Source: an uncultured Spirochaetota bacterium (GTDB taxonomy: Bacteria > Spirochaetota > Spirochaetia > SZUA-6 > Fen-1364). Taken from it: a DNA stretch of 64,000 nt. Position 1 is the stretch's first letter, and every line of letters begins with the position of its first letter. The notes below the pieces were generated by a model. It searched no databases and was not told where the DNA came from. It saw nothing but the letters and a program-made list of their open reading frames with translations. The stretch spans positions 147,119-211,118 of the forward strand of contig CAWAHW010000002.1 in the NCBI GenBank assembly GCA_963781885.1, given 5' to 3'. A program made the position numbers and the translations under genes. Shown here one piece after another: positions 34,443-57,319 of this stretch.

Positions 34443-37400
34443 TCAGCTCCGCGTTGCCGGCGCCTCTCTTGCGGAAGCGATCAGGAGCTTCAGCCTGTTG
34501 AGCTGATTGACTTCACTGGCGCCGGGGTCATAGTCGATGGCGGCGATGGAGGCCTCGGGATGTCTCCTGCGCAGCTCCCGGATCATGCCCTTGCCCGGTG
34601 ACGTGATTGGGAAGGCACGCGAAGGGCTGGATGCAGGCAATCGCGTTCACCCCGTCGTGAATGAGCTCCACCATCTCGGCCGTCAGGAACCATCCCTCAC
34701 CGGTCACGTTTCCTAGCTGCACGACATCGTCCACGCCCCGCGCGAGCTCGTAGATCGAAACGGGCGGATGGAAACGGTGCGACCGGGCAAGTGAGCGCCT
34801 CTGCTGGCCGCGGAAAAGCTCGAGGCCCCAGATCCCCAGGCGTGACATAATCGCCGCGCGCGCGCTGCCGGCGAGCTTCCGGCGTCGGAACTGTGCGCCC
34901 ATCGCCCCGTAGAGCAGGAAGTCCGCGAGGTCCGGCACCACCGCCTCAGCTCCCTCCGATTCGATGGCCTCCACGATGCGATTGTTCGCCGTCGGGTGGA
35001 ACTTCACGAGGATTTCGCCGACGACCCCGACACGGGTCCGGCGCGCGCCATGGATCGGCAGGCCGTCGAAATCGCGCACCATGGCGCGTATCGTGCGGCG
35101 GTAGGCCCGAAAGCCGTGCCGCTCCAGGGATGACGCGCAGCGCGCGGTCCAGAAATCGGCCAGACGCTGCGCGGAGCCCGTCTCCACCTCATACGGCCGC
35201 ACCCGGTAGAGCATGCGCATGAGCAGGTCGCCATACATGAGGGCCATGAGACCCCGGGTGACGAGCCTCCAGGAAAGCCGGAAGCCCGGGTTCTTCTCCA
35301 GTCCGAGCGCGTTCAGCGAAATGACCGGTACGTGCGCCATGCCCGCGTCGGCGAGCGCCTTGCGGATGAAGGCGATGTAATTCGTCGCCCGACAGCCGCC
35401 GCCGGTCTGTGACATGAGGAGCGCCGTGCGCGACAGGTCATAGCGGCCCGAGCGCAGGGCCGCCATCATCTGCCCCACGACGAGGATGGACGGGAAACAG
35501 GCGTCGTTGTTGACGGAGGAGAGCCCTTCATTCACCGCGCCGCGGTCCACTTCCGGCAGGATTTCCAGGCGGTAGCCGGAGATCCTGAACGCGTGCTCGA
35601 TGATGCGGAAATGAAGGGGCGACATCTGCGGCGCGAGGATCGTGTAATCCTGCCGCATCGCCTTTGTGAACACGGGTCGGGGCCGGGAGCCGCGGCGGCG
35701 CGCGGCCGCGCTCCTGTCCTTTCCCGGGCGTCCAGCGCAGCCTTCAGGGAGCGCAGGCGGATGCGCACGGCGCCGAGATTCGACTGCTCGTCGATCTTGA
35801 TGACCGTGTGTATCCTGCCGCGCTGGTCGAGTATCTCCATCACCTGGTCGGTGGTGACCGCATCCAGGCCGCACCCGAATGAATTGAGCTGCACGAGCGC
35901 CAAGTCATCCTGCTCCGCCACGAAGCTTGCCGCGGCGTACAGCCGGGTATGGTAGACCCACTGGTCCACGACGCGCAGCGGCCGCCGCACCGTGCCGAGG
36001 TGAGCGACGGAATCCTCCGTGAGAACGGGCATGCCCAGGGAGAGGGCGAGCTCCGCGATGCCGTGATTCACCTCGGGGTCCAGGTGGTAGGGGCGACCCG
36101 CGAGCACCAGCCCGCGCAGGCCGCGTCGGCGTATCTCGGCAAGCGCCCGTTCTCCCTGCGCGCGGACCTCCGCCTTGAACCGGGCCTGCTCGGCCTTGCC
36201 GGCCGCCACCGCGCGGGCCGCCTCCTCCCGCGTCACGCCGGCCCATGCGAGCTCTTCCTGCAGCCTCACGGCGAGCCGCTTCGCGTCGTGCAAGGGCAGG
36301 AAGGGATTTGCGTAGCGCGGCCCGGCGTGCTCGGATCCTGGTGCGCCCGGCCGCGGCCGGATACCGTCGATGTTGTTCAGCACCACCTCGGGGTAGGAGG
36401 CGACGATGGGGCAGTTGAAGTGATTGCGCGCCCCCGGATCCTCCTTCGGGTTGTGGGGGATGCAAGGGTAGAAGATGAAGGGCACACCCTGCTGCAGAAG
36501 CCGCGCGATGTGCCCGTGCACGAGCTTGCCGGGGTAACAGACGGACTCTGACGGTATCGTTTCGATGCCCGCCTCGAAGACGGCGCGGTTGGAGCGCGGC
36601 GACAGGTGCACCGAGAAACCCAGCGCGGTGAGGGCGGTGAACCAGAAGGGGTAGTCTTCATACAGGTTCAGCACGCGCGGGATGCCGACGACGCCGCGCG
36701 GCGCCGCGGCCGGATCCAGCGGCGCGTAGTGGAAGAGCCTCTCGTACTTCCAGGCATAGAGGTTGGGAAGGGGCGCGGCCGATGCCGCCGCGGCGGCGTT
36801 GGTCGCCGTATGCCCCGGGGCGCGCGCGGCGCCGCGCTCGCATCGGTTGCCGGAGATGAACGTGCCCTGTCCTCCGCTGCCGTCGGGGAAGCTCGTGATG
36901 GTGAGCAGGCAGTTGTTCGCGCAGCGCCCGCAGCGCGACAGGGTCGTGCGCGTCGTGAAGGACGCCAGGCGATCCAGGTCCAGGAGGCTGCTGCGCTGCC
37001 CGTCGCGTGCGCCGTCCCGCGCGACAAGGGCGGCACCGAGTGCGCCCATGAGACCGGGTATGTCCGGTCGGACCGCCTCCCGGCCCGCGATCAGCTCGAA
37101 GGCGCGCAGCACGGCGTCGTTGGAGAATGTCCCGCCCTGCACGACCACACGGGCGCCCAGCTCCGAAGGGTTTCGCAGCCTGATCACTTTCTGCAGCGCG
37201 TTGCGGATCACCGCGTAGGAAAGACCGGCGGAGATGTCCCCCATGGAGGCGCCCTCTTTCTGCGCCTGCTTCACGCGGGAGTTCATGAAGACGGTGCACC
37301 GCGAGCCGAGGTCCACCGGCGTGCGCGCCTGCAACGCCTCCCGCGCAAAGGCCTCGATGGACAGCCCCAGCCCGTGGGCGAATGTCTCCAGGAAGGATCC

Positions 37401-38763
37401 GCACCCCGACGAGCATGCCTCGTTCAGCAGCACGGACGAGATCGCCCCGTCGCGCACGCGCAGGAACTTCATGTCCTGGCCGCCGATGTCGAGGATGGCG
37501 TCCACGCCGGGCAAGGAAGCGCGCCGCGGCGGTGTAGTGCGCGATGGTTTCCACTTCGCCCGTGTCCATGCCGAGCGCCGCGGTGATCAGCGCCTCGCCG
37601 TACCCGGTGGCGCAGGACCGCGCGATCCACGCCGCTGCCGGCAAAGCCCGGCGCAGCTCCGTCGCCATGCGCACGGCGAGCGCGAGCGGGCTTCCGCCAT
37701 TGGCCGCGTACGACGACCAGGCAAGCGCCCCGGTCGAATCGACGAGCACCGCCTTGGTCGTGGTGGATCCGGCATCGATGCCGAGGAAGCAGGGACCCGT
37801 CACGGCGGCAAGGTCAACCCGGCGCGTGCGCGCCAGGCCGTGCCGCGCGCGGAAGGCGGACAGCGCCGCTTCATCGGCGAACAGGGGCCGCAGGCGCTCC
37901 ACCTCGGGGGAGGATTCGTGGCAGAGCCCGCGCGCGCGTTCGCGCAGCTCGCCCAATGTCACCGTGGCGCCGACGGGAGCCGCCATGGCAGCACCCATGG
38001 CGACGAAGAGATGCGCGTGCGCGGGCACCCGCACCTTTTCCGGGGCAAGCCGGAGCGTCTCGATGAACAGCCGCCGGGTCTCGGGCAGGAAGTGCAGCGG
38101 TCCGCCGAGGAAGGCCACCGTGCCGCGGATGGGCTTGCCGCAGGCCAGCCCCCCGATGGTCTGGTTCACCACCGCCTGGAGGATGCTCGCGGCGATGTCC
38201 TCCCGGCGCGCCCCTTCGTTGATGAGCGGCTGCACGTCGGTCTTTGCGAATACCCCGCAGCGCGCGGCGATGGGGTAGATGGTCGTGTGCCCGGCCGCAA
38301 GCTCGTTGAGACCCGCCGCATCCGTGGAGAGGAGCGACGCCATCTGGTCGATGAACGCGCCCGTGCCGCCGGCGCAGGTCCCGTTCATGCGCTGCTCGAG
38401 GCCGCCCGTGAAGTAGGTGATCTTCGCGTCCTCGCCGCCCAGCTCGATGGCGACGTCCGTGTCCGGGAGGGTCTTCTGCACGGCGCGCGCGCCGGCGATC
38501 ACCTCCTGCACGAAAGGGATCCCCAGCCACCGCGAGACGGTGAGCCCTCCTGAGCCCGTCATCGCAACGCTGAGGAGCTGCCCCCCGCCCGCGGATTCAA
38601 GTGAGTCGCAGGCCGCCTCGATCACGGCGACGAGCGTGCCGCGGACGTCGGCCTTGTGGCGCTGGTAGGTGTGGTAGAGGAGGGCGTCATCCGCGCCGAG
38701 CGCGACGAGCTTCACGGTTGTGGATCCGACGTCGATGCCGACCCGGAGGGCGGGGGGTCTCAC
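34443..38763 (-). pseudogene. CoA-substrate-specific enzyme activase (BadF/BadG/BcrA/BcrD-type double ATPase) fused to a 2-hydroxyglutaryl-CoA-dehydratase-like domain; about 1440 aa reading frame broken by three frameshifts (about 37508, about 35685, about 34598)
   Basis: Two actin-fold ATPase repeats (VGIDVGSTTVKLVAL and LGIDAGSTTTKAVLVD) plus a C-terminal HgdB-like domain. Each junction falls in a G/C run. Confidence 0.8.
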
Positions 38764-39751: not shown

Positions 39752-40957
39752 ATGCCGATAACAAGTGCACACGTGATTGCTGCGGCGCGGGCTCATCGCG
39801 ACGCGACCGCCCGGACTCTCTCCTCCATCGTGCAAATACCCTCCTTCAGCGGCAAGGAGGAGGCGGTGTGCCGGAAGATCGCCGCGCTCTGCACGGAGGC
39901 GGGCCTGGACGAGGTCCGCATCGACGGGCTGGGTAATGTGATTGCCCGCGTCGGCAAAGGGCCGCGGAAGATCGTCTTTGACGCGCACATCGACACCGTC
40001 GGGGTGGGGGACCCGTCGCGCTGGGCCACCGATCCGTTCTCCGGTCTCATCCGCGACGGGCTGGTGCTCGGCCGCGGCACGTCGGATCAGAAAGGCGGAG
40101 CCGCGGCCATGATCGCGGCGGCCCGCATCCTGAAAGAGACCGGCTATGACGGGGTATTCAGCGTCTACTTCACCTTCACGGTGCTGGAGGAGGACTGCGA
40201 CGGCCTGTGTTGGCGCTACCTCATCGAGAAGGAGGGGCTGCGGCCGCAATTCGCCGTCTCCACGGAGCCGACGAGCTGCCGCCTGTATCGCGGCCATCGC
40301 GGGCGGATGGAGATCGAGGCGCAGGTGCGGGGCATCTCCGCGCACGGCTCGGCGCCCGAGCGCGGGGAGAGCGCCGCCTACAAGACCGCCCGCGCGGCGC
40401 TCGCCGTGGAACGGATGAACGAGACGCTTGCCACGGACGAGTTCCTGGGCAAGGGGACGGCCGTGGTTTCCCGCATCGATGCGCACGGGCCCAGCCAGTG
40501 CGCGGTCCCCGATCAGGGCTCGCTCTACATCGACCGCAGGCTCACGTGGGGGGAGACCGCCGACCAGGCGCTCGCCCAAGTGCGGAACGCCATGGCAGGC
40601 GACGTGGAAAAGGTGGCCATGCCCCGGTACGAAGGCAGGGGATGGAACGGCGCGCGATACGACCAGGACCTGTATTTCCCGACGTGGAAGATCGCGGAGG
40701 ATCACCCGCTCGTCACAGGAGGCCGTGAGGCGTACCACGCGCTTTTCGGCCGGCAGCCCGAGGTCGGCAAGTGGACGTTCAGCACGAATTGCGTGGCCAT
40801 TTGCGGCGTGCACGGGATCCCCTGCATCGGTTTCGGCCCCGGCGACGAGGACAAGGCCCACGCGCCGAACGAGCAGACGCGCATTGATGACCTCGTGACC
40901 TGCAGCGCCTTCTACGCCATGCTCCCGCTCGTGCTGGAGGAGAGGAGCGGGGGCTGA
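39752..40957 (+). CDS. M20-family metallopeptidase/hydrolase, YgeY-like
   Basis: DAHIDTVGVGD...GRGTSDQKGG...NEQTRIDDL, the peptidase M20 dimetal-site pattern. Confidence 0.8.
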   Translation: MPITSAHVIAAARAHRDATARTLSSIVQIPSFSGKEEAVCRKIAALCTEAGLDEVRIDGLGNVIARVGKGPRKIVFDAHIDTVGVGDPSRWATDPFSGLIRDGLVLGRGTSDQKGGAAAMIAAARILKETGYDGVFSVYFTFTVLEEDCDGLCWRYLIEKEGLRPQFAVSTEPTSCRLYRGHRGRMEIEAQVRGISAHGSAPERGESAAYKTARAALAVERMNETLATDEFLGKGTAVVSRIDAHGPSQCAVPDQGSLYIDRRLTWGETADQALAQVRNAMAGDVEKVAMPRYEGRGWNGARYDQDLYFPTWKIAEDHPLVTGGREAYHALFGRQPEVGKWTFSTNCVAICGVHGIPCIGFGPGDEDKAHAPNEQTRIDDLVTCSAFYAMLPLVLEERSGG

Positions 40958-41537: not shown

Positions 41538-42793
41538 CTAACGTACGAGCACCTCCTTGAACCAGGGATAGATGACGTCGGCGGCAAATTGGATGTTGTT
41601 CATTGTGCAGTGTTGGTCGGCACCGTTTTCCGTCTTGAAGACGACATGTTTCTTTTCGCACTGGAGCGCATCATAGAATGCTTCCGCGGCGCGGCTCGCC
41701 TTCTCGCCTTCTCCCTCGGATTGGAGCGACAGGAATGGCGCCGTGATATGTCCGGCCAAGGGCATGATATCCCAGTCGCACTGGATCTTCTTCATGAATT
41801 CACCAAAGCTACGGGTATTGTTGGTCCAGTCCATCAGCGAAAAAACAAAGCGCGCATCATCCCGCTTTTTGGCGACCGGAGCGACAAGTTTATTCCAAGC
41901 ATCTACCGAAAGGGTTTCCAACCGTGAGGCGATGAAACCACTGAATACGCCGGGCACCTGTTCCAGGGCTTCATCCAGCCAGTGTTTGAAATAGTTTGGC
42001 AATATCGCATTGACAGCCGCCGCCTTGATGCGCTTGTCGAAAGCCGCCGCCCTCGGCACCATGAAGCCGCCCAAACTCACCCCATAGACCCCAAGACAGG
42101 CCATGTCCACGTCCGGTCGGGTCTGACAGTAGTCCAGAACCGGGCCCAGCACATGTTCCCAGTCGTGGCGAAAGCACAACGTGGGATCCTGGTGCAATGC
42201 CCCGCGTTGTCCCGGTCCATGAAACACCATCACATTGAATCCGTATTCAAGCGCCTGTGGGCCCCCCCGATGAAGAACATCTCCTCTCCGGCGCCATCGC
42301 CGCCCCCATTGAGCACGATCGTAGCTCGCGGCTCGCTGTCATGCCCGCTGGTTTTGAAGAAATACCCCGGAAGTGTGGTCGATTCATACGGAATGGCGAT
42401 TTTTTCGCCATGGTAAGGACCATGTTCAAGCGCTTTGTCGAAGCAACGGATTGAATCGTGGTAGAGCCCTGCCTGCTCCTGGCTGCCCTGCGGCATGACG
42501 GCGAACTCGGCGGCTCGGAAATAATTCCAGGCCCGCAGATACGCGCGGCTGGCGGCAACCAGGTTGCCTTCTTTTTCAAAACCGGACGCCAATTCTTCCG
42601 TCCGTATGGCCGTTTCCTTCCAGCCCGCCACCCATGCATCGAAGGTCTCACCGCGCGTCTTTATCAGGTTGGCCGCGTAATAGCACTCACCAACGCTGGC
42701 GGCTGAATACGGGGTATACCCCATCGCTCGGGTGAACCCAGCATCGAACACCTCTGACTTGAATACATTGAGGCGCAACATCATCTGTTTCAT
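41538..42793 (-). pseudogene. alpha/beta hydrolase (dienelactone-hydrolase-like), frameshifted in a C7 run near 42233
   Basis: N-terminal part (MKQMMLRLNV...IVLNGGGDGAGEEMFFIGG) and C-terminal part (VMVFHGPGQRGAL...GVYGVSLGG...) lie in different frames. RBS aaggagga. Confidence 0.7.
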
Positions 42794-42914
42794 GGATTCC
42801 TCCTTGACGAGTCGTTGCTCTAGCGACTGTGTGTTGATTACACTGTAGCAAGACTGGCGGTGCCATTCAGCGACGAAGATGATTGATGGGTCGCATAAGC
42901 AACAGGTGTCGAAC

Positions 42915-43568
42915 ATGTCCAAAGACAAGACGTCGCACGCTCGTATGACCAATAGCCGCAAGCTCGATCCGCGTATCGAACGCACCCAGGAAGCGCTCCG
43001 TGGTGCGCTCATGGCATTGATTGAGGAGAAAGGTTTTGACGCGATTTCGGTTCAGGATATCACCGAGCGTGCACGGCTTAACCGTGCCACGTTTTACCTT
43101 CACTATGATGACAAGCAAGACCTGCTTGTTCGTGCGAGTGAAGCGGCCTTTGATCGTTTGATAGCGGAAGCCGGACCGATTGATCGGGAGAACCTTGCTT
43201 TCCAGAAGCCACCACGGCAGGTTGTGCTTCTCTTTGAGCACATGGCAAAACACCGAAGGTTTTACCGATCGGTCCTCGGCAGACCGGGAGAGCCGGCATT
43301 TGCTGCACGGGTGCACGAATACATCGCCACGTTTACGCAAAGGCGGACTGCCAGTTTGCACACCATCTACCCCGCGGCCGTTCCTATTCTGGATGATATC
43401 TTCATCAGCGAATATGTGACGGGGGCGCTGCTTGGCATAATAACCTGGTGGTTGGAAAACGACTTGCCGCGTTCACCAGAGTACATGGCCGACCGATTTG
43501 GCTGGCTTAGCGCTGCCGGTACGTACCGGATGATGGGTATTGAGCCGCCAAGCCTTGACGCTGAATAG
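42915..43568 (+). CDS. TetR/AcrR-family transcriptional regulator
   Basis: ALMALIEEKGFDAISVQDITERARLNRATFYLHYDDKQDL. Confidence 0.85.
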   Translation: MSKDKTSHARMTNSRKLDPRIERTQEALRGALMALIEEKGFDAISVQDITERARLNRATFYLHYDDKQDLLVRASEAAFDRLIAEAGPIDRENLAFQKPPRQVVLLFEHMAKHRRFYRSVLGRPGEPAFAARVHEYIATFTQRRTASLHTIYPAAVPILDDIFISEYVTGALLGIITWWLENDLPRSPEYMADRFGWLSAAGTYRMMGIEPPSLDAE

Positions 43569-43706
43569 CACCTCGACGCGGCATGCCGGTCGTTACCGTT
43601 GGGATTTCCATGCATGGAGATTTTCCCGGTTCGATGTTTCTCCGCTTGAGCGTCATAAATGAGGCGAATTTGCGAGGCCCGCGCTCTACACTTATACTGG
43701 GTGTGT

Positions 43707-44479
43707 ATGCCAACGTTGCGCAGATCGATCCTTCTTCCCCTCCTGGCCGTCATCTCCCTCGGATTTGCAGGCTGCGCGACATTTTTCGGCCCACCGGGCA
43801 GCTTCGGCCGCGAGCCGTATCGATCTGCGGATGAGCTTCGCGCGCCGCTTTCCATGGAAGAGAAGGCCGTGCTCGCTTCCGCAAAGAGCCTGCTCGGCAG
43901 GGCCCCCGACTCCAGGGTCCGGGTGAACGGCAGGACATTCACGCTGGACTGCATCGGCACGGTGGCCGCCATATTCTGGGGGCCGGCTATGACATCATGA
44001 AGGATGCCGGCCGCTACGGCGGCGGCGGTGTGCGGAGCTTCTACGCCGAGCTTCAGGCAATGAGCGCCCTGCACCACGATCTGTACCCGCGGCCCGGCGA
44101 CGTCGTGTTCTGGGACAACACCTACGACGCGAACGGGGATGGGGACCTCACGGACGACCCGCTCACGCACGTGGGCCTGGTGGTCGCGGTCGACGCCGAC
44201 GGCACGATCCACTACGAGCACGAGCACCTCCGCAAGGGCGTGATCGTGGAAGTCATGAACCTCCTGCATCCCGATGAGTACGCCACCCCGGACGGCAAGA
44301 TCGTCAATTCCGCGATGGCAGAGGCCCGCAAGATCAGGCCCGTGCATTGGGTCTCCGGGGACCTCTGGAACTCATTCGGAGACGTGATCGGCAATGGGCG
44401 CCGCTTCGCCATTGCGGACGTTCGTCGGGATCCGCTCGCGGCCGTCCTGCTCGCCGTCGGGGCTCCCGCGTCCCCGTGA
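43707..44479 (+). pseudogene. lipoprotein with CHAP/NlpC-P60-like Cys-His hydrolase domain, frameshifted in a G5 run near 43975
   Basis: Lipobox LGFAGC. Cys (TLDCIGTVA) and His (LTHVGLV) motifs fall on either side of the shift. Confidence 0.55.
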
Positions 44480-47169: not shown

Positions 47170-48525
47170 GTGAGCGCGATAGTTCTCAAGGACTGCTTCT
47201 ACATCCAGCCGTCGGCCGATGCGCAGGGAATACGCGGCGCCGATGTCCTGATCCAGGACTCCTCGATTGCCGCGATGGCCCGCGGTCTCACCGTTCCGCC
47301 CGGCGCGCGCGTCATCGATTGCGCGCATCATGTTGTGGTGCCCGGATTCGTGAACACGCACCACCACTTCTTCCAGACACTCACGCGCAACCTGCCCGCG
47401 GTGCAGAACGCGAAGCTCTTCGACTGGCTGGTCTACCTCTATGAGATCTGGAAGAGGATCGATGGGGAGGCCATCCATACCTCGTCGCTCCTTGCGATGG
47501 GCGAGCTCCTGAAGACCGGCTGCACCTGCTCCACAGATCACCTCTATCTGTATCCGCGGGGCGCGCGCGCCGATTTCGCCGCGCTGCAGTTCCAGGCCGC
47601 CGGGGAGCTGGGCATGCGTTTCGCGCCATCCCGGGGCTCGATGTCTCTCAGCAGGAAGGACGGCGGCCTGCCGCCCGACACGGTGGTGCAGGACGAGGAG
47701 ACGATACTTGCCGACAGCGAGCGCGTGATCAAGGCATTCCACGATCCGTCCCCGCGCGCGATGAGGAAGGTCGTGCTCGCGCCGTGCAGCCCTTTTTCCG
47801 TGAGCGAAGACCTCATGCGGCGCACCGCGCGTCTTGCGCGCCAGCACGGGGTGCGGCTGCACACGCATTTGGCGGAAACGGCGGACGAGGATGCGTACTG
47901 CCTTTCCCGCTACGGCGTGCGGCCGGTGGAGCTCATGGAGCGCTCTGAGTTCATCGGCCCCGACGTCTTCTACGCGCACGGCATATTCTTCAACGACGCG
48001 GAGCTGGACGTGCTGCGGGAGCGCGGCGCGCACATCGCCCACTGCCCGTCGTCCAACATGCGGCTGGGGTCCGGTGTCTGCCGGGTGCGCGACATGCTGG
48101 ACCGGGGCATCAATGTCTCACTGGCGGTGGACGGGTCGGCATCCAACGATTCATCCGACTTCCTTGGCGAGATGCGCCACGCGCTCCTCCTGCAGCGCGT
48201 CGTGAAGGGAAGCGGCGCGCTGAACGCACGGGAGGTCCTTTCCATGGCCACCACCGCCGGTGCCGACGCCCTGGGCTTCGGCGGAATCGGAAAGGTAGAG
48301 CCGGGACAGGCAGCGGACCTCGCGGTGTTCGACATCGGCAGGCTTGAATACTGCGGAAGCCTTTCGGATCCGTTTGCCGCTCTTATTTTCTCGGGTTACA
48401 ACCATGGTACGGCCTATACCATCTGCAACGGGAAAGTGGTCGTCGACAACGGAAGGCTCACGGGCATCGACGAGGAGAAGCTCATCAAGGATGCGAACCG
48501 CATCGCGGCGCGGCTCGTCGAATAG
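47170..48525 (+). CDS. amidohydrolase, 8-oxoguanine-deaminase / SsnA-like (TRZ/ATZ family)
   Basis: PGFVNTHHHFFQTLTR metal-binding motif. 451 aa. Confidence 0.8.
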   Translation: MSAIVLKDCFYIQPSADAQGIRGADVLIQDSSIAAMARGLTVPPGARVIDCAHHVVVPGFVNTHHHFFQTLTRNLPAVQNAKLFDWLVYLYEIWKRIDGEAIHTSSLLAMGELLKTGCTCSTDHLYLYPRGARADFAALQFQAAGELGMRFAPSRGSMSLSRKDGGLPPDTVVQDEETILADSERVIKAFHDPSPRAMRKVVLAPCSPFSVSEDLMRRTARLARQHGVRLHTHLAETADEDAYCLSRYGVRPVELMERSEFIGPDVFYAHGIFFNDAELDVLRERGAHIAHCPSSNMRLGSGVCRVRDMLDRGINVSLAVDGSASNDSSDFLGEMRHALLLQRVVKGSGALNAREVLSMATTAGADALGFGGIGKVEPGQAADLAVFDIGRLEYCGSLSDPFAALIFSGYNHGTAYTICNGKVVVDNGRLTGIDEEKLIKDANRIAARLVE

Positions 48526-51636: not shown

Positions 51637-51779
51637 ATGACCTCCTAAAGATGTGTTTGAACTACCTAAACCGACCATCCGGTATATCTATTGCCAGCAT
51701 CAGCTCACCATTTTTTTCCACCTCCTCCATTACTCGCAGGTTCTAAACCGACCGTCCGGTATATCAAATATCATAAAAA
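51637..51779. promoter_or_regulatory. TetR-MFS intergenic region with two direct copies of aaaccgacc(a/g)tccggtatatc
   Basis: A third related copy (aaaccggacagtcggttta) lies upstream of the tetR start at 52385-52405. These are candidate TetR operators. Confidence 0.4.
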
Positions 51780-52377
51780 TTAGGCTTTGATCGATCCATA
51801 GAAACCGTCCCAGATTGCGCGAAGGTCCTCGACCGTCCTGGCTGTTTTTCCGACCACCATGTTGTCCAAGCCGACACCGCTGTTGGTGTGGATGAACACT
51901 GCCGCGATCTGCTCGTCCGTCATGGGGCTGTCGATCTCCGCTCTTTGCCGCGCAAGGCCGATGATTTCCCGCCAGGCCGCGAGCTCCGCGGACGACGAGG
52001 AAATCATCTTCTGCCTGAACTTCCGGAAAGAAGCGTATCGCGTCGAACACGAGGGAGTAGTAGTTTAGGTCGAAGGACGAGATGACGTCACCCTCGAGTA
52101 GTGATCCGTAGGAATCGCTGAGATGCGACAGGTAGTCCTCGTAGTACGCGCGGAGTGAAATCCGCGTGAAGTTCCTGTAGTCGATGTTGATAAGCCGGGC
52201 ATAGATGTTTTCGACGATTTCCAGGAAGATCTGCTCCTTGGTGCCGAAATAGTGATAAAACGCGCCTTTTGACATCTGCGTCGCCTCGACGATCTCTTTC
52301 ATCGTCACTTCCTTGAAGCTTTTCTGGAGAAAAAGCACGATCGATCGCTTCAGGATGTGCTCTTTTGTGTCTTTCAT
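51780..52377 (-). pseudogene. TetR-family regulator, frameshifted near 52025
   Basis: N-terminal HTH (LFLQKSFKEVTMKEIVEATQMSKGAFYHYF) lies in one frame and the C-terminal region (MISSSSAELAAWREIIG...) in another. Confidence 0.7.
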
Positions 52378-52533: not shown

Positions 52534-53319
52534 ATGATCACCGACATCGTGCGGCCGAAGACAGTCGCCGAGGCGCTGCGCGCGAAAAGCACGCCGGGGG
52601 CGGCCTACCTTGGCGGCGGCACCTGGCTGAACGCGGGACGGGAGCCGGGGCCCGCGGTCCTCATATCGCTTGAGAATCTCGGGCTGGGCACGGTGGAGGC
52701 CGCTGACGGCGGATGCACGATCGGCGCTGCGGTGAGCTTCCAGCAGCTCATCGATGCCGAATCCGTGCCGCGCGCGGTGAAGGCTGCCGCGGGGCTCACG
52801 GCGTCGCGGACACTCCGCAACATGCAGACCGTGGGTGGAGAGCTGGGCCTGTGCCCGGCGGACTCCGCGTTGATACCCGTTCTTGTCGCCCTGGACGCGA
52901 CCGTGCTCCTGGCGGGGGCCCGGAAACCTCTGCCAATCGGGGATTTCTGGCTGAACAAGCCGGACGATCTTGTCCTTTCCATCACAATCCCGGAGGGAGG
53001 CCGCACGGCCGCGGTGCGCGCGGTCTCCCGCACGTCACACAGCCCGCGCTCCCTCGTGGTCGTTGCCGGAGCGCCCGGCAGGAATGGGGGCGAGGCCTGC
53101 ATGGTGCTCAGCGATTGCCGGGAGGAATGCGTGGTGATCCGGGAACCCGAGCTGAATCGCTGGCCGCTGCCGCCCCGTGAGAAGATCGAGGAAATGGTGC
53201 GCGCGGCATTCTCGCCGGCGGCAGACATCCATGCCTCGGCGGAATACAAGCGGTTCGTCGCGGGAGTGCTCGCGGCCGACATGCTGCACGAGCTGGCAGC
53301 CGGGAAGGTGACCCTATGA
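52534..53319 (+). CDS. molybdopterin-dehydrogenase FAD-binding subunit (CoxM/XdhB/YgfM-like)
   Basis: YLGGGTWLN...MQTVGGEL FAD-binding pattern. Its stop overlaps the XdhD-like start. Confidence 0.85.
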   Translation: MITDIVRPKTVAEALRAKSTPGAAYLGGGTWLNAGREPGPAVLISLENLGLGTVEAADGGCTIGAAVSFQQLIDAESVPRAVKAAAGLTASRTLRNMQTVGGELGLCPADSALIPVLVALDATVLLAGARKPLPIGDFWLNKPDDLVLSITIPEGGRTAAVRAVSRTSHSPRSLVVVAGAPGRNGGEACMVLSDCREECVVIREPELNRWPLPPREKIEEMVRAAFSPAADIHASAEYKRFVAGVLAADMLHELAAGKVTL

Positions 53320-56120
53320 AAATCGCCTTCACCTTGAACCGCGTGGCGCGCAGCGTTACGGCAGAGCCGGGCGAATGCCTCCAGGAGCTCCTTCAACGCA
53401 TCGGCATTCCCTCCGTGCGCGGCGCAGACGACGGCGAAGGATTCGCCGGCGCCGACACGATACTCTTCGACGGGAAGGCGATGCTCGCCAGCCTCATGGT
53501 CGCGGCGCAGGCCGACGGCCACTCCATCGAGACGGTGGAAAGCCTCATGGAGAACGGCCGCCTCTCGGCGCTGCAGGGCGCCATGCTCGACGCGGGTGTC
53601 GTGCAGTCCGCGTACACCACCCCCGCCGCCGCCCTGCTCATCGAGGAGCTGCTCCGCCGCTCACCCGAGCCCACGGAGGAGCAGGTGCGGGACGCGCTTT
53701 CTGGTGTGTTCAGCAGGGCCACCGGTTACAAGCAGTTCTTCCAGGCCGTGGAGCTTGCGCGAAAGCGCCGCACGGATCCGGCATCGACCATTTCCATTGA
53801 GGAGTTCCGCGACGACCTGCGGGTGGTGGGCAAGGTGCGCCGCCGGGTGGACGGGGTGAAGCTCGTTGCCGGCATGAAGGCGTACGTGGAGGATCGCGTC
53901 GAGCAGGGAAGCTGCACGCTCGTCATGCTGCGAAGTCCCCACGCGCACGCGAAGATACGCGGCATCGACATCGCCGCGGCACTCGCGCTTCCCGGCATCG
54001 TCACGGTCATCACGCACCTGAGCTGCCCCGACGTCATGTACACGTTTGCCGGCCAGGGATTCCCCGAGCCGTCGCCGTACGACTTCCGCATGTTCAGTCC
54101 CGTCGTGCGTCACGTCGGGGACAGGGTGGCTGCCGTGGTTGCCGAGGACGCGGCGACTGCCCGTGAGGCGGCAAAGCTCGTCGCGGTCGACTACGAAGTT
54201 CTCCCGGCTGCCCTCACGATGGACGATGCGATGGCGAACGGCGCCCCCGTCGTGCACGGCGATCACCTGGAGCGCATCACCTGCGAGCTTTCCATCGGAT
54301 CGGATGCCCGGCGCAACCTCGCGGCGAGCGCCTCCGGCTCCATCGGCGACGTCGACAGGGGCTTCGCGGAAGCGGACGCCGTGGTGGAGCGCACGTATTC
54401 CACCAGCAAGGTCCAGTGCACGCCGCTTGAGTCGCACGTCGTCTATACGCGCATGGACGGGGATCGCCTGGTGATCCATGCATCGACCCAGGTGCCCTGG
54501 CATCTGCGGCGCATCGTGGCGCGGGTCCTCGGGATCCGCGAGAACCGCATCCGGGTCATCAAGGAGCGCATCGGCGGCGGGTACGGCAGCAAGCAGGACA
54601 TACTCCTGGAGGACGTCTGCGCGTGGGCCACGTTCACGACCGGCAGGGCCGTGTTCTACAAGTACAACCGGGAGGAGGAGTTCATCGCTGCCACCACCCG
54701 GCACCCCATTCGCTACACCGTGAAGATGGGCGCCAAGAAGGACGGCACGCTCACGGCCATCCGGCTCACGGGTGACGCGGATACCGGCGCGTTCGGCAAT
54801 CATGCCCTCACGGTGCCCATGAACAGCTGCTCGAAATCGCTGCCGCTCTGGCGATGCCCGAACATGGCCTTCGATCTGCGGAGCTGGTACACGAATGTCG
54901 TCTCGTCGGGCGCCTACCAGGGCTACGGCGCGCCGCAGGGCTCTTTCGCGGTCCAGATGGCGGCGGCGGAGCTTGCCGCGGCGCTCGGCATCGACCTGCT
55001 CGCGTTCATCCGCAAGAACCACGTACGGCAGGGCGACGTGCTGGAGATCCTGAAGAGCCTCGGGGAGGGAAGACCGGGGGAGGCCGTCACGGTGGGAAGC
55101 TGCGGCCTGGACAAGGCGCTGGAGGAAGGGGCCGCGAGCATCGGCTGGGGCGTGAAAGGCACGGACGCCAATCCCGACGTGCGCATCGGCAAGGGGGTGG
55201 CATTCATCCAGCAGGGCTCGGGTCTGCCGGGGCTCGACCAGGCATGCGCGAACGTGAAGCTCCTGTCGGACGGCACATTCATGGTCCATTCCGGCGGATC
55301 GGACCTGGGCACCGGTCTGGACACCGTCCTTTCCAAGGTGACGGCGGAGACGCTCTGCTGCGACATGGACAATGTGGCCGTGCTCACCGGCGACACGGAC
55401 ATGACCCCCTTCGACAAGGGCGCCTATGCGTCCAGCGGCACCTTCTTCACGGGCAACGCCGTGCTGAAGGCCGCCCAGGCGCTCGCGGACCGCATGATCG
55501 ACACGGTCGCGGGCATTCTGAAAGAGCCGCGCGACGGCGTGCACCTGGCCCACCCGGGCGTCGTGCAGGGCACGAAGGGATCCCTCACCTACGCCGCCCT
55601 TGCACACCGCTCCTCCTCGGGGCACGGAGAGGGCGAGCTCATGGGCAGCGCCTCCTTCGTCACGCATGAGAACGCCATCCCCTATGCGGCGCACTTCTGC
55701 GAGGTGGCGGTGAATACGCGCACCGGGGCCATCGACGTGCGCCGTTACCACGCCGTGCACGACTGCGGGACCCCCATCAACCCCGACCTTGCCATGGGCC
55801 AGGTCTACGGCGGCATCCTCAAGTCCATCGGGCACGCCCTGTACGAAGAGATGATGTTCGACGCGGAGGGGCGCTGCCTCACCACGACCCTTGCCGACTA
55901 CGGCGCTCCCATGATACAGGAGCTCCCGCGCGACGTGCGCGTCCGGCTCGTGCAGACCGACGATGCCTTCGGGCCGTTCGGCGGCAAGAGCGTCGCGGAG
56001 ATCAGCGTGAACGGGGCGGCGCCGGCGCTCGCCGTCGCCATCCACGACGCGGTGGGTGTCTGGATACGCGACTGGCCCCTGACACCGGAGAAAATCTTGA
56101 AGGCACTCGGGAGGTTCTGA
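53316..56120 (+). CDS. xanthine-dehydrogenase-family molybdopterin subunit fused to an N-terminal ferredoxin-like domain that lacks all cysteine ligands (XdhD-like)
   Basis: 934 aa. The N-domain keeps LSALQ, TTPA and TGY motifs but has no Cys. The aldehyde-oxidase/xanthine-dehydrogenase Mo-binding domains are complete. Confidence 0.9.
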   Translation: MKIAFTLNRVARSVTAEPGECLQELLQRIGIPSVRGADDGEGFAGADTILFDGKAMLASLMVAAQADGHSIETVESLMENGRLSALQGAMLDAGVVQSAYTTPAAALLIEELLRRSPEPTEEQVRDALSGVFSRATGYKQFFQAVELARKRRTDPASTISIEEFRDDLRVVGKVRRRVDGVKLVAGMKAYVEDRVEQGSCTLVMLRSPHAHAKIRGIDIAAALALPGIVTVITHLSCPDVMYTFAGQGFPEPSPYDFRMFSPVVRHVGDRVAAVVAEDAATAREAAKLVAVDYEVLPAALTMDDAMANGAPVVHGDHLERITCELSIGSDARRNLAASASGSIGDVDRGFAEADAVVERTYSTSKVQCTPLESHVVYTRMDGDRLVIHASTQVPWHLRRIVARVLGIRENRIRVIKERIGGGYGSKQDILLEDVCAWATFTTGRAVFYKYNREEEFIAATTRHPIRYTVKMGAKKDGTLTAIRLTGDADTGAFGNHALTVPMNSCSKSLPLWRCPNMAFDLRSWYTNVVSSGAYQGYGAPQGSFAVQMAAAELAAALGIDLLAFIRKNHVRQGDVLEILKSLGEGRPGEAVTVGSCGLDKALEEGAASIGWGVKGTDANPDVRIGKGVAFIQQGSGLPGLDQACANVKLLSDGTFMVHSGGSDLGTGLDTVLSKVTAETLCCDMDNVAVLTGDTDMTPFDKGAYASSGTFFTGNAVLKAAQALADRMIDTVAGILKEPRDGVHLAHPGVVQGTKGSLTYAALAHRSSSGHGEGELMGSASFVTHENAIPYAAHFCEVAVNTRTGAIDVRRYHAVHDCGTPINPDLAMGQVYGGILKSIGHALYEEMMFDAEGRCLTTTLADYGAPMIQELPRDVRVRLVQTDDAFGPFGGKSVAEISVNGAAPALAVAIHDAVGVWIRDWPLTPEKILKALGRF

Positions 56121-57319
56121 TGGAAGCCCTGACCCCGCACGACATCCACCGCATGATCGATTCCCTCTCCGCCCCGGCCCTCGCGGAGCTTCACCGCAGG
56201 GATTTCCTCCTCACGTGGGACAAGAGCCGGGAAGGCCTCGAGGCGGTGCTCCAGTGCGCCCTGATCCTGAAGGCGCTGCGCGTGAGCAACATCTCCCCCC
56301 GGATCTACGACAGCGGCATCGCCGTGTCCCAGTTCCGCGACAACTCGACGCGGACGCGCTTCAGCTTCGCCTCCGCCTGCAACCTGCTGGGTCTCACCGT
56401 CGCCGACCTCGACGAGGGCAAGTCCCAGGTGGCGCACGGAGAGACGGTGCGCGAAACGGCGAACATGATCTCCTTCATGGCGGAGGTGATCGGCATTCGC
56501 GACGACATGTACATCGGCAAGGGCCACGCGTACATGCTCGAGGTCGCGGAGGCCGTGGACCAGGGCTTCCGTGACGGCGTGCTGGAGCAGAGGCCCACGG
56601 TGGTGAATCTCCAGTGCGACATCGACCACCCCACGCAGTCGATGGCGGACCTCCTCCACATCGTGGACGACGTGGGCGGCTTCTCCCATCTGAAGGGGAA
56701 GAAGGTCGCCATGACCTGGGCGTATTCCCCGTCCTATGGCAAGCCGCTTTCGGTCCCGCAGGGCGTCATCGGGCTGTTCACCCGGTTCGGCATGGACGTG
56801 CGCCTGGCGTATCCCGAAGGCTACTCGCTCATGCCGGATGTCGTGCAGAATGCCGAGGGATTCGCGAAGCAGGCCCGCGGGGCATTCCGCGTCTGCTCCT
56901 CCATGAAGGAGGCATTCGACGGCGCCGATTTCGTCTACCCCAAGAGCTGGGCGCCGTTCTCCGTGATGGAGGAGCGCACGAGGATCGTGGAGACGGGTGA
57001 CCGCCAGAAGCTTCAGGAGCTGGAGAGGCGCTGCCTGGAAAACAACGCGCGCTTTGCGGACTGGGAATGCACCACCGCGCTCATGGGCGGCACCAACAAC
57101 GCCACCTACCTGCACTGCCTGCCCGCGGACATCAGCGGCGTGAGCTGCCCGCGCGGGGAGGTGGCTGCCGACGTCTTCGACAAATTCCGCGGCCCCCTGT
57201 ACCGGCAGGCGAGCTTCAAGCCGTATATCATCGCGGCCATGATCTTCACCAGCCGTATGGCGGATGCGCGCGCGTCGCTCTCCACGCTCCTGGACCGGAT
57301 GGACAACCGGGCGCTGTGA
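56120..57319 (+). CDS. YgeW-like (knotted) carbamoyltransferase
   Basis: STRTRFSF carbamoyl-phosphate-binding motif and an HCLP motif. 399 aa, abutting the XdhD-like stop. Confidence 0.8.
   Translation: MEALTPHDIHRMIDSLSAPALAELHRRDFLLTWDKSREGLEAVLQCALILKALRVSNISPRIYDSGIAVSQFRDNSTRTRFSFASACNLLGLTVADLDEGKSQVAHGETVRETANMISFMAEVIGIRDDMYIGKGHAYMLEVAEAVDQGFRDGVLEQRPTVVNLQCDIDHPTQSMADLLHIVDDVGGFSHLKGKKVAMTWAYSPSYGKPLSVPQGVIGLFTRFGMDVRLAYPEGYSLMPDVVQNAEGFAKQARGAFRVCSSMKEAFDGADFVYPKSWAPFSVMEERTRIVETGDRQKLQELERRCLENNARFADWECTTALMGGTNNATYLHCLPADISGVSCPRGEVAADVFDKFRGPLYRQASFKPYIIAAMIFTSRMADARASLSTLLDRMDNRAL

Follow-up and report, generated by a model that had tools for sequence, protein, structure and literature searches.

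The stretch analysed here (the window) comprises 64,000 nucleotides of contig CAWAHW010000002.1 from an uncultured Spirochaetota bacterium and encodes a full-length XdhD, the molybdenum cofactor (Moco)-binding subunit of a xanthine oxidase-family enzyme, in which all eight cysteine ligands of the two canonical [2Fe-2S] clusters are gone. The open reading frame (ORF) at 53316-56120 on the plus strand codes for 934 amino acids (aa) and fuses a pseudo-ferredoxin part to an a/b hammerhead and the Moco-binding domains. The protein scored 1210 bits against TIGR03313 (curated NCBIfam cutoff 1101.9), contains the Pfam domains Fer2_2, Ald_Xan_dh_C (a/b hammerhead), MoCoBD_1 and MoCoBD_2, all above their cutoffs, and is 53% identical to XdhD of E. 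coli from end to end (934 and 956 residues). Its best species-level relative, with 92% identity, is found in a metagenome-assembled genome of a fen Spirochaetaceae member. The window XdhD thus belongs to a known and recently characterised family; the new point is a family-level question, namely by which route electrons travel in an enzyme that lacks the Fe-S relay. Our analysis suggests that the window enzyme is probably a functional urate reductase of the XdhD-YgfM type, the N-terminal domains of which would serve only as a structural bridge.

Residues 1-150 of the window XdhD share homology with the two-[2Fe-2S] module of the family, as an initial annotation of the sequence had claimed. Fer2_2 matched with 55.7 bits (cutoff 30.3), 36 PDB sequences matched the N-terminus at E ≤ 1e-5 (best 3hrd_D, E = 1.4e-26; also 4zoh_C, 8uem_C, 1rm6_C and 1t3q_A), and the alignment to P0112 and P0118, two orthologs with all eight cysteines, was gapless. 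According to alignments to solved Fe-S subunits (HMMER), domain 1 (residues 1-75, 53316-53540, plus strand) corresponds to the plant-ferredoxin-like fold that normally carries the FAD-proximal [2Fe-2S] site, FAD being flavin adenine dinucleotide. Domain 2 (residues 76-150, 53541-53765, plus strand) corresponds to the helical Fer2_2 domain with the normally Mo-proximal site, the Pfam match covering residues 73-146.

The ligand pattern of the canonical module is CxnCx2Cx11C followed by Cx2Cx31CxC. When aligned to solved Fe-S subunits and to the orthologs with all eight cysteines (all-Cys orthologs), the window XdhD retains none of them. The replacements, all on the plus strand, are C38 to Asp (53427-29), C44 to Ala (53445-47), C47 to Asp (53454-56) and C59 to Ser (53490-92) in domain 1, and C98 to Ser (53607-09), C101 to Thr (53616-18), C133 to Ser (53712-14) and C135 to Ala (53718-20) in domain 2. 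C21, the sole cysteine within residues 1-175, is non-conserved and does not occupy a ligand position. The complete loss had been noticed in the initial annotation; its register was one residue off at two sites, the fourth ligand position being S59 and not L60 and the first being D38 of 'ADDG', which leaves the conclusion unchanged.

In proteins with the fused Fe-S plus Moco architecture, about 40 other, independent representatives of clusters at 50% identity all carry eight of the eight cysteines. A count of zero in the window XdhD is therefore far from chance. A frameshift or sequencing error, by which a corrected sequence might have restored the cysteines, was rejected, since the same in-frame replacements recur in orthologs ranging from E. 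coli to Spirochaetes; no alternative frame restores the cysteines. The separate small Fe-S subunit that had been proposed as a target of search was not found in the 64 kb window, where tblastn with E. coli XdhC matched only the N-terminus of XdhD itself. Since all ligands are absent, the canonical Fe-S wire is impossible in the window XdhD, as had been concluded before, even though the cognate FAD subunit is encoded directly upstream (ORF 52534-53319) and is translationally coupled through an overlapping stop and start (ATGA).

The initial annotation had implied a peculiarity of this locus, which did not hold. For a census of the family, E. coli XdhD was pooled with the 120 top-ranking database relatives of the window XdhD and with the 120 top-ranking ones of an all-Cys ortholog, which gave 228 full-length proteins. 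No ligand cysteine was present in 120 of these, all eight were present in 106 and seven in two, and none of the 228 keeps the ligands of one cluster while lacking those of the other. Species-representative genomes contributed 82 loci, 53 of them cluster-less and 29 all-Cys. The cluster-less loci belong to Spirochaetota, Desulfobacteraceae, gut Alphaproteobacteria and SAR324, with gut Clostridia (Vescimonas) represented by one cluster-less representative of a 50%-identity cluster, and the all-Cys loci to Planctomycetota, Myxococcota, Eisenbacteria, Acidobacteria and others. Both classes share the same gene context and the same YgfM-type FAD partner. Ligand loss is hence a family trait of all-or-none character and not an oddity of one locus.

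E. coli itself belongs to the cluster-less class. Its XdhD-YgfM pair (b2881/b2880) resembles that of the window in the matching family model, in the ygfM-xdhD gene order with overlapping stop and start and in the absence of all eight ligands. The residues of E. coli XdhD at the ligand positions are D38, A44, D47, S59, S98, N101, S133 and D135, which are identical to those of the window XdhD at 38, 44, 47, 59, 98 and 133. Of 5426 complete E. coli genomes, 5163 carry the gene. Despite its lack of ligands, the protein (L001:10808-13678) is named 'molybdopterin-dependent oxidoreductase Mo/Fe-S-binding subunit' in RefSeq, and for roughly half of the family this pipeline name is probably incorrect.

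Class-separating columns are located almost exclusively in the cluster loops and comprise the eight ligand positions together with positions 37, 43, 58, 105 and 108. The cluster-less states at class-specific columns are D38, F43, D47, A58, S98, A105 and L108, while all-Cys proteins have Ser, Asp or Glu at 43, M105, A108 and a basic residue at 863. The Moco part contains only six class-specific columns, one of which is the change of this basic residue to G863. D38 and D47 occur in 120 of 120 cluster-less proteins, S98 in 119 of 120 and F43 in 97%. The remaining ligand positions (44, 59, 101, 133 and 135) vary among these proteins and are occupied by small or polar residues, often Ala, Gly or Val.

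The catalytic part of the window XdhD (residues 176-934, 53841-56120, plus strand), with the a/b hammerhead and two Moco-binding domains, is intact as judged from its alignment. Its Moco catalytic residues, namely GGGxGxKQ (residues 420-427), E584 and K891/S892/E895, are invariant across 24-73 family members (alignments A2 and A3). E584 aligns with E606 of E. coli XdhD, the conserved Glu that was proposed to orient urate, and E895 is the catalytic Glu.

The empty N-terminal domains are under strong purifying selection and are not decaying. Relative to the Moco part, their conservation in the cluster-less class is on par with or above that in the all-Cys class, and the ratio of non-synonymous to synonymous substitution rates (dN/dS) in the lineage of the window is 0.09-0.15 for residues 1-150 compared to 0.08-0.18 for the Moco part. 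The AlphaFold2 (AF2) model of the window XdhD has a predicted local distance difference test score (pLDDT) of 89. The model is confident for residues 1-150, which range from 76 to 96, with dips only at the former cluster loops (95, 93, 92, 83, 88, 95 and 96 by block in domain 1). The best PDB match of the model is 1sij, the aldehyde oxidoreductase (MOP) of D. gigas, with template modelling scores of 0.86/0.89 over the full length including the Fe-S domains. The N-terminal domains of the window protein are thus predicted to keep the fold of the D. gigas enzyme.

The partner subunit encoded at 52534-53319 on the plus strand is a YgfM-like FAD-binding protein of 261 aa (Pfam FAD_binding_5, E = 4.9e-21) with 33% identity to E. 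coli YgfM. Its GGGT and RNxxTxGG FAD motifs are conserved in the partners of both XdhD classes, which rules out a degenerate FAD subunit. In nearly all loci of both classes, ygfM adjoins xdhD. Residue 110 of YgfM, located in 'PADSA' in the window protein, co-varies with the class of its partner, being Cys in 18 of 29 YgfM proteins encoded with an all-Cys XdhD and Asp in 36 of 50 encoded with a cluster-less one. This pattern suggests co-adaptation at the former interface between cluster and FAD.

Experimental data exist for the E. coli ortholog. Purification of tagged XdhD also yielded a co-purifying protein of roughly 30 kDa, taken as YgfM, and with reduced nicotinamide adenine dinucleotide (NADH) the preparation converted urate to 2,8-dioxopurine; cells lacking xdhD accumulated urate (Li et al. 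2025, PMC12507026). A commentary gives an AlphaFold3 interface score (ipTM) of 0.94 for the XdhD-YgfM pair (PMC12990295). Urate reduction with NADH by the E. coli proteins, in addition to the invariant Moco active site, makes a non-redox role unlikely, which had been one of the two interpretations offered initially. The other interpretation, an unusual electron path, remains the right question.

In the reading that we favour, the window XdhD would be the Mo subunit that converts urate to 2,8-dioxopurine in a Spirochaete of peat or fen, the activity being known for the E. coli ortholog. Its N-terminal domains descend from the duplicated [2Fe-2S] module of the xanthine oxidase family and, after remodelling, would no longer bind clusters. 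Asp is invariant at two ligand positions, the first cluster pocket is probably filled by F43, and the second domain is probably repacked by the changes at positions 105 and 108. In canonical family members, the Fe-S module forms the interface between the FAD subunit and the Moco domains. The N-terminal domains of the cluster-less proteins likely still act as such a bridge and hold the FAD subunit against the Moco domains. Electrons most likely enter from NAD(P)H via the YgfM-bound FAD. That YgfM has long been kept with its FAD motifs intact, and that the E. coli preparation worked with NADH, both point to FAD as the remaining entry point. The subsequent step from FAD to Mo would have to run without an Fe-S relay and is probably slow or proceeds via an element that has so far escaped notice.

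Several points weigh against this reading. The relay of bovine xanthine dehydrogenase spans distances of about 15, 12 and 8 Å, and tunnelling from FAD to Mo over this path in a single step would be expected to be orders of magnitude slower than in the canonical enzyme. Such a slow transfer is compatible with an end-point assay. The E. coli reaction was followed as an end-point assay by liquid chromatography-mass spectrometry with 10 µM enzyme and 1 mM NADH and was reported without rates or metal analysis (PMC12507026), which leaves the passage of electrons from FAD to Mo within the complex undemonstrated. A cofactor analysis of any cluster-less XdhD was not found in our literature search. The window YgfM has TIGR03312 as its best NCBIfam match, but its score of 143.7 bits is below the cutoff of 241.5. 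YgfK, SsnA and HyuA, and also YgeX, had no match in the 64 kb window (tblastn); without the first three, this subclade has an incomplete pathway context, and its enzyme could act on a different substrate.

Whether the cluster-less XdhD-YgfM constitutes a natural flavo-molybdoenzyme of the xanthine oxidase type in which electrons pass between FAD and Mo without any Fe-S relay is a separate claim, which we put forward tentatively and consider rather doubtful. A relay-free route might be provided by a re-packed FAD-Moco geometry, by a new site formed by the invariant D38, D39, D47 and S98, or the Mo site might be reduced directly.

As an alternative to electron entry through YgfM, Moco could be reduced, directly or via a different surface, by an external Fe-S or flavin donor (a ferredoxin, YgfK or a protein of the AegA/YgfT type), with YgfM being kept for stability or regulation. 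A counterpart is known from Clostridia. XdhAC/DOPDH of C. sporogenes catalyses the same interconversion of urate and 2,8-dioxopurine at its Moco site (bioRxiv 10.1101/2025.04.24.650524); unlike the window enzyme, it is described with Fe-S binding domains and without an FAD domain or subunit or NAD(H) dependence, and an artificial donor was used in its assay (bioRxiv 10.1101/2025.04.24.650524; PMC12990295). DOPDH is a distant relative only; for its C. difficile counterpart, an identity of about 26% is given (Li et al., PMC12507026). In E. coli loci, ygfK, ygfS and ygfT are located near xdhD. Against this, YgfM with conserved FAD motifs is encoded beside xdhD in nearly all cluster-less loci of several phyla. 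The two-protein preparation from E. coli was active with NADH alone (PMC12507026), although an assay without kinetics leaves room for a better physiological donor. Co-occurrence analysis by all-versus-all ORF clustering of 81 loci showed differences in gene order only, with YgeW enriched beside cluster-less XdhD and YqeB/YqeC beside all-Cys XdhD. No donor gene specific to cluster-less loci was detected in this screen, the remaining hits being antisense artefact ORFs, and no such gene adjoins the operon in the window. We therefore regard an external donor as unlikely.

The remodelled loops could also bind another cofactor or metal through the invariant acidic and hydroxyl side chains of D38, D39, D47, S98 and S133, for instance a mononuclear metal or an Fe-S cluster held by ligands other than Cys, in which case a relay of some kind would persist. 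The near-complete conservation of D38, D47 and S98 exactly at former ligand positions fits this idea, as does P0129 (L085:670-4310, 943 aa), a distant XdhD-like protein with 40% identity to the window XdhD and an overlapping upstream FAD-subunit gene of its own. In P0129, the FAD-proximal ligands alone were lost and independently replaced by D, G, D and G in 'FCDEWGEGGSDTVLVDG...MSAG', while the motifs of the second cluster, QCGYCTPA and CRCTGY, were kept. The variability of positions 44, 59, 101, 133 and 135 in the cluster-less proteins, however, means that there is no conserved set of four ligands. The bulky F43 could fill the pocket, and the Asp residues may instead cap backbone NH groups that were once bonded to cluster sulfur. 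Binding of another cofactor thus appears quite improbable.

A pseudoenzyme, a decaying gene or a sequencing or frameshift artefact, for which only the missing cysteines and the low score of the FAD subunit would speak, is hardly credible for an intact ORF of 934 aa that exceeds the family cutoff, has dN/dS values of about 0.1 in both parts and an invariant active site, and shares its replacements with 120 independent sequences, 5163 E. coli genomes among them, with the E. coli ortholog being active. Both an artefact and a non-redox role are effectively excluded, and a functional urate reductase with a structural N-terminal bridge remains our preferred reading.

Comparison with known systems delineates the window enzyme from its relatives. 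The all-Cys orthologs P0118 (locus L003) and P0112 (L004) are 57-59% identical to the window XdhD. They share with its class the YgfM-type partner and the uricolytic neighbours YgfK, SsnA, YgeY, YgeW, ArcC, YqeB and SelD, but keep C38, C44, C47, C59, C98, C101, C133 and C135 and presumably bind both clusters. The D. gigas MOP (PDB 1sij/1vlb; 26% identity) has the same single-chain architecture of Fe-S-type and Moco domains. It contains two [2Fe-2S] clusters and no FAD subunit, whereas the window XdhD lacks the cluster ligands and has an FAD partner. The canonical three-subunit enzymes, such as E. coli XdhABC, the CO dehydrogenase CoxLMS and nicotinate dehydrogenase (3hrd), are built from the same Moco, FAD and Fe-S-type modules, and the N-terminus of the window XdhD is 35% identical to E. 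coli XdhC. Their small subunit carries eight cysteines and serves as electron wire, while the corresponding module in the window is fused and cluster-less.

The evolutionary history of the loss was approached with neighbour-joining trees. In trees of the Moco part, the all-Cys proteins form a clade (bootstrap support 99/100) nested among cluster-less lineages, while a clade of all cluster-less proteins received 0/100. This result persisted when long branches were left out, when only close outgroups were used and under gamma distances; site stripping, i.e. removal of the faster-evolving columns, erased all resolution of the tree. The N-terminal domain tree groups all cluster-less lineages together, even with the diagnostic columns removed. 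At positions 37, 43, 58, 108 and 863, the outgroup residues match the all-Cys class and the cluster-less proteins share derived states. An insert of about 20 residues near residue 318 is present in all-Cys proteins, E. coli XdhD and one cluster-less clade, but absent from the 88-member subclade of the window (window 54266-54272, residues ~318-319) and from the outgroups, which hints at either a secondary deletion in the clade of the window or its branching first. The data fit three scenarios: a single loss combined with long-branch artefacts, several parallel losses, or exchange of the N-terminal module between lineages. The relay may have been discarded more than once. The 'half-wire' state of P0129 indicates that the FAD-proximal cluster can be lost alone, with the same Asp replacements as in cluster-less XdhD.

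In the textbook view, FAD-carrying xanthine oxidase-family enzymes need two [2Fe-2S] clusters to span the distance between flavin and Moco. A large and taxonomically broad branch of the family, which includes Spirochaetota, Enterobacteria (E. coli K-12), gut Alphaproteobacteria, Desulfobacteraceae and gut Clostridia (Vescimonas), has lost both clusters, whereas its flavin subunit and catalytic site, together with the empty domains, have been retained under selection. With about half of the family being cluster-less, including E. coli, the electron route from FAD to Mo is a real and apparently undiscussed question. Our full-text literature search covered both 2025 pathway papers, the DOPDH preprint, the commentary, the 2008 selenium-hydroxylase paper and two molybdoenzyme papers, with Xi et al. 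2000 and Iwadate & Kato 2019 outside its coverage, and the absence of the Fe-S ligands of XdhD was nowhere stated in it. The cluster loss at the family level thus appears to be unremarked in the searchable literature. In gut bacteria, the family is responsible for the first step of anaerobic urate breakdown, and it is in use for engineered anti-gout probiotics. This medical relevance lends practical weight to the questions of which form is faster and which donor is needed, and the E. coli enzyme provides a purifiable test case for the family-level question.

In the window, ygfM, xdhD and ygeW form a translationally coupled operon. The third gene (56120-57319, plus strand) encodes a YgeW knotted carbamoyltransferase (NF005538, 643.5 bits, cutoff 453; 61% identity to E. 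coli YgeW), and its start at 56120 lies in a TGATG overlap with the end of xdhD. In E. coli, ygeW is 14 kb away from xdhD. The operon lies next to an MFS transporter gene and a divergent gene for a TetR-family protein (51730-52377, minus strand; Pfam TetR_N, E = 6.6e-14), which is the probable local regulator to judge from its position. Two further genes are located upstream on the plus strand. An 8-oxoguanine deaminase is encoded 5 kb upstream of the operon (47170-48525; NF006055, 573.4 bits, cutoff 532). The product of this enzyme is urate, so it could supply the substrate of XdhD. A YgeY-family hydrolase, which belongs to the later part of the reductive urate pathway, is encoded 12 kb upstream (39752-40957; NF009555, 482 bits, cutoff 321; 50% identity to E. 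coli YgeY).

Unlike the surroundings of xdhD in E. coli, the 64 kb window contains none of ygfK, ssnA, hyuA, yqeB and yqeC. The genes yqeB, yqeC and selD, which are co-located accessory genes of selenium-dependent molybdenum hydroxylases (Haft & Self 2008), had no tblastn match in the window at 1e-10 and are present beside some XdhD orthologs in other loci. In close Spirochaete relatives (L006-L015), the gene neighbourhood is reduced in the same way, while the full cluster is present in more distant Spirochaete loci.

Elsewhere in the window, two ORFs of more than 430 aa each (34528-35874, minus strand, and 37234-38553, plus strand) flank a gene for a BcrAD/BadFG-type coenzyme A-enzyme activase (35532-37514). 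They had no match in Pfam or NCBIfam and may be spurious high-GC ORFs overlapping real genes. A back-to-back pair of minus-strand ORFs of 231 and 260 aa (41538-43012 and 42001-44000) had no Pfam match. At this pair the G + C content falls to 0.57 compared to about 0.65 in the surrounding sequence, and similar dips were observed at 6-8 kb and 24-28 kb.

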